Part shown: in pieces, positions 7,741 to 8,743 of the stretch
How the letters are laid out: every line of letters begins with the position of its first letter
Numbering within the stretch: the first letter of the stretch is position 1
IMG/VR virus record: IMGVR_UViG_2698536471_000018
Coordinates: 1-39,898 of that record
Reading direction: 5' to 3' (one strand)
DNA: 39,898 nt
Source of the DNA: a virus
Taxonomy: Duplodnaviria > Heunggongvirae > Uroviricota > Caudoviricetes
Position numbers and translations under genes: made by a program
Notes under the pieces: generated by a model
Seen by the model: only the letters and a program-made list of their open reading frames with translations
Told to the model about the DNA's origin: nothing
Database searches by the model: none

Positions 7741-7770
7741 AGAAAGCAAAAAACCCGCCGAAGCGGGTTT
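7741..7770 (-). terminator. Rho-independent terminator ending the moron transcript
   Basis: Minus-strand RNA AAACCCGC-UUCG-GCGGGUUU followed by UUUGCUUUCU; lies between the membrane-protein stop (7786) and the gp45-like start (7728). Confidence 0.75.
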
Positions 7771-7785
7771 GAAAGGATGTATGGA

Positions 7786-8358
7786 TTATTTAGGTTTCTT
7801 CCTACCATAAACAAACACTGTAGTTAATCCTACGAGATCTAAAGTAGCAAGAGTACCTGCGAACCAAGTGTTACCGCGATTAGCAAAAAACGCAGCCATT
7901 ATAAGCACTACCATTGCAATGCAAAATCCCATCCATTGCCCACGTTTGTCGCGTGAAACCGCACCAAGTAATGCATCGCTTTGCGTCTTATGCCTATGCT
8001 CTTGCTCTTTTTCGGTTAGCCTGAAAATTCTCTCAGCGCCGCCGGGTAATATTTGATTATATTGTAAGAGCATAGCAGGAGGTGGGAGTGGTCCCTGAAA
8101 AGACTCCTGCTGAAACATGGCAATAACCTTCGGATTCTTAGAAACTCTCTCAAGAAGTTCAGGTGTTAACTTCGATTTTAGCTCAGGATCAAGGTTGGCA
8201 ACTGCAGACAGCTTTTCCACTACTTCCTGAGACTCATCATATTCCGAGGAATCAATATTTTCGTCGATACCATCCGAATCAGGAACGGCTTTTTGCGACG
8301 CTTTGTTTTCCTGACGCTTTTTGAGAACGGCCGCCTGCTTGCGGGGTTTTGAACTCAT
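7786..8358 (-). CDS. Moron: membrane protein with charged N-terminal region and two C-terminal TM helices (possibly DUF2335-like)
   Basis: Lys/Glu-rich N-terminus, C-terminal WMGFCIAMVVLIMAAFF / TLATLDLVGLTTVFVYG hydrophobic helices; inserted between baseplate genes and followed by its own terminator. Confidence 0.6.
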   Translation of the reverse strand: MSSKPRKQAAVLKKRQENKASQKAVPDSDGIDENIDSSEYDESQEVVEKLSAVANLDPELKSKLTPELLERVSKNPKVIAMFQQESFQGPLPPPAMLLQYNQILPGGAERIFRLTEKEQEHRHKTQSDALLGAVSRDKRGQWMGFCIAMVVLIMAAFFANRGNTWFAGTLATLDLVGLTTVFVYGRKKPK

Positions 8359-8518
8359 ACCTGATAACTCTGTTCATGTCACTTGCAATGACTTTAACAT
8401 CACTTCTTATTGCCCGACAATCAGATCCAGAAGCAGCATATTGCCAGTAATCTGTAGTCGGCATAATGTCCATAACACTACCGGCAGCGGCTAAGTAACG
8501 ATTAACGATTTCCCTCAT
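8279..8518 (-). CDS. Possible small protein (about 79 aa) overlapping the start of the membrane-protein gene
   Basis: ORF from MREIVNRYLAAAG... preceded by GGGAGGGG; overlaps downstream gene by about 80 nt in another frame. Could be non-coding leader instead. Confidence 0.25.
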   Translation of the reverse strand: MREIVNRYLAAAGSVMDIMPTTDYWQYAASGSDCRAIRSDVKVIASDMNRVIRYEFKTPQAGGRSQKASGKQSVAKSRS

Positions 8519-8658
8519 ATCCCCTCCCATAGTGAACATCAGTGGAGCGCAGAGTTTACCTTTAAGGTAAAGTATAGACAACTACTGTGTACAGATGGTT
8601 CAAAAAATGCGTTAACCAGTATTATTTTGTTAAAATTAGCGCAATTGGCAACAGTTCA

Positions 8659-8674
8659 TCCATAATATTATGGA
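8659..8674. promoter_or_regulatory. Perfect 16-bp palindrome TCCATAATATTATGGA in AT-rich intergenic region (candidate operator)
   Basis: Read directly; lies in the 160-bp AT-rich gap upstream of the membrane-protein moron, near candidate -35/-10 elements. Confidence 0.4.
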
Positions 8675-8743
8675 CGTCAAAAATCATCGCCCAGCCACTT
8701 TTTTACACGGGAAAGATCCGATGATTTTCGGCGCATCCATGAC

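Follow-up and report, generated by a model that had tools for sequence, protein, structure and literature searches.

A mobile two-gene DUF2335 cassette in a variable cargo slot of a prophage baseplate operon

The DNA analysed here (the window) is a stretch of 39,898 nucleotides from a tailed phage of the Caudoviricetes (IMG/VR record IMGVR_UViG_2698536471_000018), and the element in question lies at positions 7741–8743, between the baseplate hub and baseplate spike genes of a prophage. We show that this segment is a mobile two-gene cassette, an exchangeable insert at a variable cargo slot within the late (baseplate) operon. One gene encodes a small protein of 79 residues; the other, which overlaps it, encodes a membrane protein of the DUF2335 family. 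An earlier note on the segment, made from the letters alone, listed sequence features that are all present where it placed them, but it read the unit as a single membrane protein with a possible small open reading frame (ORF) at its side, whereas the unit is a two-gene module. The cassette genes and the elements that bound them are as follows.

9211–10275, minus strand: baseplate hub gene, matching phrog_196 'baseplate hub' (5e-88) and, weakly, E217_GP41; left flank of the slot
8279–8518, minus strand: small partner gene, 79 residues, ATG at 8518, N-terminal motif RYLxAAGSVMDIMPxxDY, matching phrog_26284 (E = 1e-11)
7786–8358, minus strand: DUF2335 gene, 190 residues, with a charged disordered N-terminus, the DUF2335 domain and two C-terminal transmembrane (TM) helices
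7745–7770, minus strand: intrinsic terminator, with a hairpin at 7770–7751 (stem AAACCCGC / GCGGGTTT, TTCG loop) followed by a T-run
6973–7728, minus strand: baseplate spike gene, matching Pfam PF18352 (1e-43) and carrying an Apex motif; right flank of the slot

The cassette is exchanged between prophages

An intergenic region of the segment had been called AT-rich. The GC content is 0.40–0.45 over approximately 7750–9250, and the hub and spike genes have 0.53–0.57. This low-GC island exceeds the flagged segment: it extends to 9210 and takes in a second cargo gene at 8744–9208, termed module B. Of 5426 complete Escherichia coli genomes, 306 have the hub gene, and 16 of these carry the DUF2335 cassette, in every case at full length and at least 99% identical. 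Carriers include the E. coli lysogens KSC64, E308, BEN2908 and M-17. The cassette is missing from about 95% of the E. coli prophages that have this hub gene and from all but one of 45 species-representative relatives. Because it is absent from nearly all relatives, we rejected the reading that it encodes a structural protein.

Across complete E. coli genomes, module B and the cassette are distributed independently, and strain KSC64 is the only one in this set to have both. Ten near-identical copies of the cassette in IMG/VR all lie in the hub-to-spike slot, with or without module B, and adjoin spike alleles of 60–100% identity. The presence of one cassette beside varied spike alleles shows recombination at the conserved flanks. 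In relatives, other genes are swapped for the cassette at identical junctions. The low GC content, the presence in 16 of 306 genomes and the exchange at the same junctions bear out the earlier view of the segment as horizontally exchanged accessory cargo inside a tail operon.

The hub-to-spike slot is a two-position cargo site

The hub and spike genes had been thought to be normally adjacent. They stand side by side in only 3 of the 45 relatives; the gap between them ranges from 85 bp to 5 kb, and the remaining relatives hold one to several differing genes there, so that the cargo is diverse. An occupied slot is the normal state, so the view of hub and spike as neighbours split by a one-off insertion does not hold. 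Comparison with related tail operons, proposed in the earlier note as a check on the insertion, gave a divided answer: compared with most relatives the cassette is an addition, yet the place that it occupies is a permanent slot. Between hub and spike, the isolated phages vB_EcoM-689R2, SEN34, YP3 and Mulock have two different genes apiece, and the slot is a two-position cargo site, for which approximately 39 cargo clusters were counted in the relatives. The left cargo junction lies in the final one to three codons of a phrog_3443 gene and the right junction at the 5′ base of the terminator hairpin, which places the DUF2335 cassette proper at approximately 7771–8683 (about 0.9 kb).

The gene of phrog_3443 encodes a conserved secreted protein of about 113 residues and is found directly behind the hub gene in nearly all 45 relatives. 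In the window, two elements occupy this position.

8744–9208, minus strand: module B, 154 residues, with a signal peptide; its TTG start lies 3 nt past the hub stop codon
8684–8740, minus strand: relic of the 3′ end of the phrog_3443 gene, consisting of its last 18 codons (MDAPKIIGSFPCKKVAGR) and the stop codon

Module B, an independent cargo gene and the second one here, has taken the place of most of the phrog_3443 gene. It has no match in Pfam, PHROG, NCBIfam, PADLOC or PDB. Both module B and the phrog_3443 product are secreted proteins encoded right behind the baseplate hub.

Several of the cargo genes in relatives belong to known defence systems. In the second position we find PD-Lambda-1 (E = 3e-82), PDC-S42 (2e-36) and a membrane-anchored nuclease that resembles Mrr/PDC-S02. 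Further cargo there comprises a recurrent pair of proteins of 243 and 142 residues that matches HEPN weakly, and several proteins that are secreted or lie in the membrane. The loci with defence or HEPN cargo are L030 (Pantoea dispersa), L025 (Rouxiella silvae), L033 (Pantoea ananatis) and L003, L008, L009 and L013. With conserved flanks and variable cargo that includes known defence systems, the slot qualifies as a defence hotspot in the sense of PMC9122126. It resembles the hotspots of P2-like phages and P4-like satellites (PMC9122126) in its conserved flanks, its variable anti-phage cargo and the exchange among related prophages, and differs from them in belonging to another phage group, in its site within the baseplate operon and in being a two-position slot closed by a conserved terminator. 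A terminator-bounded slot between hub and spike appears to be undescribed in the literature that we searched. The defined junctions, the known defence cargo and the conserved, possibly insulating terminator make it a practical site for mining candidate defence genes in Enterobacterales prophages. Many of the slot cargo proteins in relatives fall into no family.

A strong terminator had been noted just ahead of the next baseplate gene, and both the hairpin and the T-run were detected at that site. It does not belong to the cassette, as had been supposed, but is a conserved element of the backbone. Of 37 distinct relatives, 36 have the hairpin, AACCCGC(C)-loop-GGCGGGTTTTTT, and the spike ribosome-binding site ahead of the spike gene. 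The hairpin is kept whatever the cargo, including in the cargo-less relatives L040, L047 and L051, and its 7-bp stem shows compensatory changes at three pairs among the relatives. The terminator may insulate the downstream baseplate genes, and its presence may explain why insertions are tolerated at this slot.

The DUF2335 membrane protein

No known family had been assigned to the membrane protein. Residues 92–141 match PF10097 (DUF2335) over the full 50-position profile and score 66.6 bits, where the cut-off is 25 (E = 1.8e-18); P92, P94, Y100, R110 and G140 are invariant. The protein also matches phrog_3996 (1e-46) and, weakly, a second PHROG family, phrog_31635. Its general description was sound: lysine, arginine, aspartate and glutamate make up 21 of the first 57 residues, confirming a highly charged N-terminus, and hydropathy peaks at approximately residues 139–160 and 165–184 correspond to two C-terminal hydrophobic helices. 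An AlphaFold2 (AF2) model contains helices at 94–103, 107–160 and 164–187, with a predicted local distance difference test (pLDDT) score of 83–92 over residues 90–180. Based on the hydropathy and the flanking charges, both termini and the conserved domain are predicted to be in the cytoplasm.

Homologues in Enterobacterales are 140–190 residues long. The family as a whole is very large, with 16,446 representative clusters (clustered at 50% identity) at E ≤ 0.001, and is rare on plasmids (13 of 72,556 records). In BFVD, two unnamed viral proteins were the only matches (E = 2.8e-4 and 1.8e-3). The window proteins are clear members of PF10097, phrog_3996 and phrog_26284, families that carry no function, and the family descriptions returned by the searches record neither the pairing nor the natural fusions described below.

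A conserved small partner is encoded upstream of DUF2335

The ORF that had been listed as possible proves to be a genuine gene. It is preceded by a strong Shine-Dalgarno sequence, GGGAGGGG, matches phrog_26284 and encodes a conserved partner of the DUF2335 protein. Its last 80 nt overlap the start of the DUF2335 gene, which is read in the +1 frame relative to the small ORF. In almost every context, the partner is an ORF of 64–79 residues with the motif RRYLxAxGSxxDxxPxxxY, located directly upstream. Profile searches, which included 48 IMG/VR contigs, placed the partner next to DUF2335 in most of approximately 70 loci, and the pair was found from Proteobacteria to Firmicutes and Bacteroidetes. 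Diverged partners retain a C-terminal motif, sD..al..DW..vG.dl. An upstream ORF overlaps the DUF2335 start in Pseudomonas phage MD8, Lactococcus phage D6890 and Lacticaseibacillus phage P2.4; the MD8 protein matches phrog_26284, and the D6890 ORF was missed by the partner profile. In Xenorhabdus (P0028–P0030 and P0035), the N-terminal motif of the partner is fused in cis to the DUF2335 domain. In the AF2 model of this fusion, the motif and linker have block-mean pLDDT values of 38–51, too low to infer how they pack. The obligate pairing of DUF2335 with the small partner appears to be undescribed in the literature searched.

A few further arrangements were seen. Natural fusions of the partner motif to DUF2335 occur also in L111 and L113. 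The metagenomic phage contig L119 has two tandem partner-DUF2335 pairs at 3109–4339, followed by a RelE/ParE-like gene. In Klebsiella pneumoniae (L075 and L076, 5001–5195), a small-partner ORF stands as an orphan without DUF2335. In the RefSeq annotation of L001 (KSC64) and L002 (E308), the small partner ORF is uncalled and the stretch from the DUF2335 gene to its neighbour is shown as empty.

The overlap between the two genes ranges from 11 to 80 nt across pairs, being 80 nt in the window and 11–59 nt elsewhere. Most DUF2335 starts lack a Shine-Dalgarno sequence, and the partner ORFs carry GGAGG. In the window, the start codon of DUF2335 falls within the small ORF, and no good Shine-Dalgarno sequence precedes it. 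The overlap, the missing DUF2335 Shine-Dalgarno and the GGAGG of the partner together suggest translational coupling with the partner in excess; the DUF2335 protein would then be the less abundant of the two. A small upstream partner, overlapping genes and a strong Shine-Dalgarno sequence followed by a weak or absent one are the layout of a type II toxin-antitoxin operon.

The same layout could be read differently, as the site of a programmed +1 ribosomal frameshift that yields one polypeptide, beside or in place of the separate proteins. The DUF2335 frame is +1 in all overlapping cases checked (10, and in addition the diverged copy L129 described below), fusions in cis exist in nature, and a start without a Shine-Dalgarno sequence fits as well. 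In 11 of 12 cassettes, however, the DUF2335 frame is closed by a stop codon 3–15 nt upstream of the ATG, and none lacks an ATG or GTG. The pairs of Proteus and Providencia do not overlap at all, but lie in the same frame with a stop codon between them. No slippery motif is evident in the sequences viewed, among which a conserved one was not searched for. We consider frameshifting very improbable.

The conserved leader contains an inverted repeat

Upstream of the small gene, the DNA contains the following elements. L129, to which they are compared, is a diverged copy of the cassette in the same slot, with a DUF2335 protein that is 81% identical.

8519–8618, minus strand: conserved leader, with the Shine-Dalgarno sequence GGGAGGGG (8521–8528), candidate promoters and an inverted repeat
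8576–8581 and 8553–8558, minus strand: candidate promoter, TTGTCT and TAAACT separated by 17 nt, matching the consensus at 8 of 12 positions
8571–8576, minus strand: alternative −10 candidate, TATACT, which reads TATAAT in L129
8555–8571: inverted repeat TTTACCTTaAAGGTAAA, overlapping both candidate core promoters
8624–8651, minus strand: promoter-like site TTGCCA-16-CAAAAT, matching at 9 of 12 positions; deleted in L129 and probably dispensable
8659–8674, strandless: perfect 16-bp palindrome TCCATAATATTATGGA, 9 nt inside the left cassette junction

The leader is better conserved than the coding DNA. Its 100 nt are 91% identical in L129, and the 3′-most approximately 91 nt about 95%; the corresponding values are 88% for the part of the small ORF that ends at the DUF2335 ATG and 79% for the ORF of DUF2335. 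A 47-nt deletion in L129 removes half of the 16-bp palindrome together with the TTGCCA-16-CAAAAT site. The palindrome and the promoter-like hexamers had drawn attention to this region, and both are present; the hexamers, however, occur at the level expected by chance, and the palindrome is dispensable. A perfect 16-bp palindrome arises somewhere in the 40-kb window in 52% of blockwise shuffles. The window has no second copy of TCCATAATATTATGGA within three mismatches, and the palindrome is absent from the other cassette lineages. Being a single copy, unshared among lineages and half deleted in L129, it was rejected as a required operator.

Not one of 5000 shuffles produced a pair of inverted repeats with arms of 8 bp or more in the 165-nt leader, a region that was picked post hoc. 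The repeat at 8555–8571, which the earlier note did not list, lies in the best-conserved part of the leader and is a better operator candidate than the 16-bp palindrome. It has no other copy in the window, and we rejected it as a site shared with the immunity region. Good −35/−10 pairs were seen in related cassettes.

The pair occupies accessory positions in other prophages

Every context of the pair that we examined is a prophage or phage remnant, and the position in it is accessory. In Proteus the pair is downstream of cI, at the position of lambda rexAB. It lies beside int in Salmonella houtenae and Pseudomonas phage MD8, and beside gtrABC in Citrobacter. In P22-like prophages of E. coli it is found in the immI region, between the tailspike and ejection genes and near arc/ant. 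Siphoviral prophages carry it in the slot between tube and tape measure genes, once beside a colicin DNase and its immunity gene, and Gram-positive phages downstream of the lysin gene. The hub-to-spike slot is shared by the window prophage and Yersinia artesiana. The cI, int, gtrABC and immI positions are classic sites of lysogen expression. In L064, L067, L069–L071 and L077, the pair is located just downstream of Bro-N, KilA-N or antirepressor-type genes.

These contexts bear on whether the pair could serve the phage's own lytic or assembly programme, for instance in lysis timing or as a membrane anchor, and be transcribed only with the tail genes. Class II holins have two TM helices and a basic C-terminal tail, and the DUF2335 protein resembles them in both features; the cassette has the orientation of the late operon, and the pair follows a lysin gene in Gram-positive phages. 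However, a gene missing from about 95% of hub-bearing E. coli prophages and from 44 of the 45 relatives, and found elsewhere in unrelated accessory positions such as downstream of cI and beside int, does not fit such a role. Separate lysis genes, lysozyme and Rz, are present in the window at approximately 25.5–26.6 kb. The cassette lies outside that region, and no holin family was matched in Pfam or PHROG. We give this explanation a slim chance.

Phage exclusion as a possible function

Defence genes in the same slot, lysogen-type positions elsewhere and the status of the cassette as cargo make phage exclusion a reasonable guess for its function. In a lysogen, the pair would be transcribed from a sigma-70 promoter in the conserved leader, with the inverted repeat placed over the core promoter, and the transcript would end at the backbone terminator. 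Read-through of terminators by Q-modified polymerase is established lambda biology. The prophage carries a Q antiterminator gene, and during lytic growth Q-modified polymerase would be expected to read through the terminator. The cassette would shield the lysogen from other phages. We favour a scheme in which DUF2335 is a membrane-acting effector that is held inactive by the small partner, or activated through it, so that the proposed pair would be functionally like RexA/RexB or an abortive-infection pair of the toxin-antitoxin type. The conservation of the module and of its cytoplasmic surfaces across phyla points to a self-contained membrane mechanism rather than to recognition of a particular phage or receptor.

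We put about even odds on phage exclusion of some kind being correct jointly with the anatomy described above. The narrower version, abortive infection, is proposed tentatively. It is also possible, though we would not expect it, that the partner and DUF2335 constitute an unrecognised two-component anti-phage system of temperate phages across phyla, with the slot as an undescribed defence hotspot in a common enterobacterial prophage group; a small cytoplasmic sensor or inhibitor would then control a two-helix membrane effector.

A number of observations weigh against exclusion by an effector and its partner. A type II antitoxin is expected to have a recognisable antitoxin or DNA-binding domain; no such fold was recognised in the small protein, which has no match in Pfam, NCBIfam or PDB. 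In the IMG/VR loci L107 and L108 the small ORF is split and DUF2335 intact, which is awkward for an essential antitoxin. The rarity of the family on plasmids is unlike classical addiction modules. In the region, six promoter-like hexamers were found where 4.3 ± 2.0 are expected, so they are not enriched, and the candidate promoter is a consensus-like match only. The argument from the location in a hotspot is one of guilt by association. The DUF2335 protein has no match in PADLOC or NCBIfam, and sequence and fold searches of the PDB yielded no relative. The literature on DUF2335, PF10097 and COG5346 held no experiment on any DUF2335 protein. Mentions of a 'DUF2335 phospholipase', or of Tle1-like proteins, in papers on type VI and type IV secretion systems were judged to be slips for DUF2235 and not used as evidence (apparent slips of this kind are in 10.1101/2023.07.16.549128, PMC6267618 and PMC13600407, and could mislead text-mined annotation of the family). 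Finally, a link to Panacea antitoxins comes from one locus only. No relative of known function was found by structure or sequence, and we offer the exclusion function as a hypothesis.

The Panacea locus, which in itself speaks for the effector scheme, belongs to one distant DUF2335 homologue, in which a gene with a SocA_Panacea antitoxin domain lies downstream and replaces the usual small partner. Panacea neutralises membrane-depolarising transmembrane toxins in PanT/PanA systems (PMC8832971). The usual partner of DUF2335 is a small protein encoded upstream and unrelated to Panacea. That DUF2335 is among the validated toxins neutralised by Panacea is unsupported: it is not named in PMC8832971 or in those of its supplements that were checked.

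The main rival to exclusion by an effector and its partner is a block at DNA entry. Here DUF2335, as an inner-membrane protein, would prevent channel formation or genome translocation by a superinfecting phage, in the manner of HK97 gp15, P22 SieA or T4 Imm, and the small protein would be a cofactor or chaperone. Homologues are found next to gtrABC and, in P22-like prophages, at immI, where sieA also lies, and the family is rare on plasmids. An inner-membrane protein encoded as a moron in a tail operon is also what is seen in HK97 gp15 (PMC3594210). However, the predicted topology leaves approximately five residues in the periplasm, and the conserved residues are all cytoplasmic. Both the module and its cytoplasmic partner are conserved from Proteobacteria to Firmicutes and Bacteroidetes, whereas known entry blockers are, to our knowledge, narrow and lineage-specific. 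No known superinfection-exclusion (Sie) protein family was matched in Pfam. We consider a block at DNA entry rather unlikely.

Another explanation is that the cassette has nothing to do with other phages, and either confers a trait on the lysogen, such as stress tolerance or a change in the envelope, or is a selfish toxin-antitoxin module that stabilises the prophage. The host-directed roles of morons are diverse (PMC3594210), the operon layout is that of a toxin-antitoxin pair, and the orphan small ORF of Klebsiella would fit. In this case, however, the slot would not be expected to be common to recognised defence genes, nor the family to be nearly absent from plasmids, and searches of Pfam and NCBIfam revealed no link to a host pathway or enzyme domain. 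We regard this explanation as improbable, though less so than a lytic role.

Comparison with HK97 gp15 and lambda Rex

HK97 gp15 (Cumby et al. 2012) is a superinfection-exclusion moron, a single gene with its own promoter and terminator, and belongs to the YebO family, which is confined to Enterobacteriaceae (PMC3594210). The DUF2335 protein resembles it as a small inner-membrane protein encoded by low-GC acquired cargo in the tail operon of a lambda-regulated prophage, with late read-through to be expected. The cassette differs from gp15 in comprising two genes, in belonging to a family spread across phyla and in using a backbone terminator. No homology to gp15/YebO was found: the Pfam scan gave DUF2335 only, and the PHROG search gave phrog_3996 and the weak match to phrog_31635. 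Tab and Tai are other late-operon morons with defence roles.

Like lambda RexA/RexB, the cassette is a two-gene unit with a membrane and a cytoplasmic component and predicted lysogen expression, and the Proteus pair is found at the rexAB position. RexB has four transmembrane helices and RexA about 280 residues. In contrast, DUF2335 has two TM helices and the partner 64–100 residues. Neither cassette protein has a Pfam or PADLOC match to RexA or RexB. The overlapping exclusion genes olg1/olg2 of Pseudomonas phage Fc02 (PMC9936078) were not used for comparison, as their layout, a nested ORF, is different.

The cassette is exchangeable prophage cargo in a hotspot, outside the gp15/YebO, Rex and holin families. 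Its deviant base composition is that of a moron. With regard to a promoter of its own, the consensus-like sites are at chance level, and the leader is strongly conserved with an inverted repeat over the candidate promoter. It does not have its own terminator, as a moron in the strict sense would, although the backbone hairpin is predicted to end its transcript all the same. By analogy, the arrangement may work like a classic moron such as HK97 gp15 and like the defence hotspots of P2 and P4.

DUF2335 is a very large uncharacterised family that now becomes testable with two small genes, given the near-constant small partner, the fusions in some bacteria and the lysogen-type positions. If the cassette proves to have no phenotype, it would be ordinary exchangeable cargo, and the reinterpretation of the terminator and the palindrome would still be a useful correction.

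The prophage and its baseplate operon

The prophage in the window is regulated in the manner of lambda (CI, CII and Q) and has a tail of the myovirus type. Other features in it are listed here.

35183–35920, plus strand: CI-like repressor
34471–34854, minus strand: CII
37683–37741, plus strand: lambda CIII thermoregulator RNA element (Rfam)
27954–28442, minus strand: Q antiterminator
27012–27164, minus strand, and 27219–27731, minus strand: two tRNA genes (Rfam) and an HNH+AP2 endonuclease, just past the Q gene
26087–26590: lysozyme, a lysis gene
25537–26127: Rz, a lysis gene
11167–13176: tape measure, one of the late genes, which extend along the minus strand as far as the tail fibres
10580–11167: Dit-like protein, after the tape measure in the operon
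10278–10580: plug, between the Dit-like protein and the hub
5421–6620: baseplate J, beyond the spike in operon order

No RNA family in Rfam was matched within the island. At the tail-fibre end, the operon adjoins an acyltransferase gene on the plus strand (Acyl_transf_3, 1863–2879), whose product is possibly an O-antigen acetylase.

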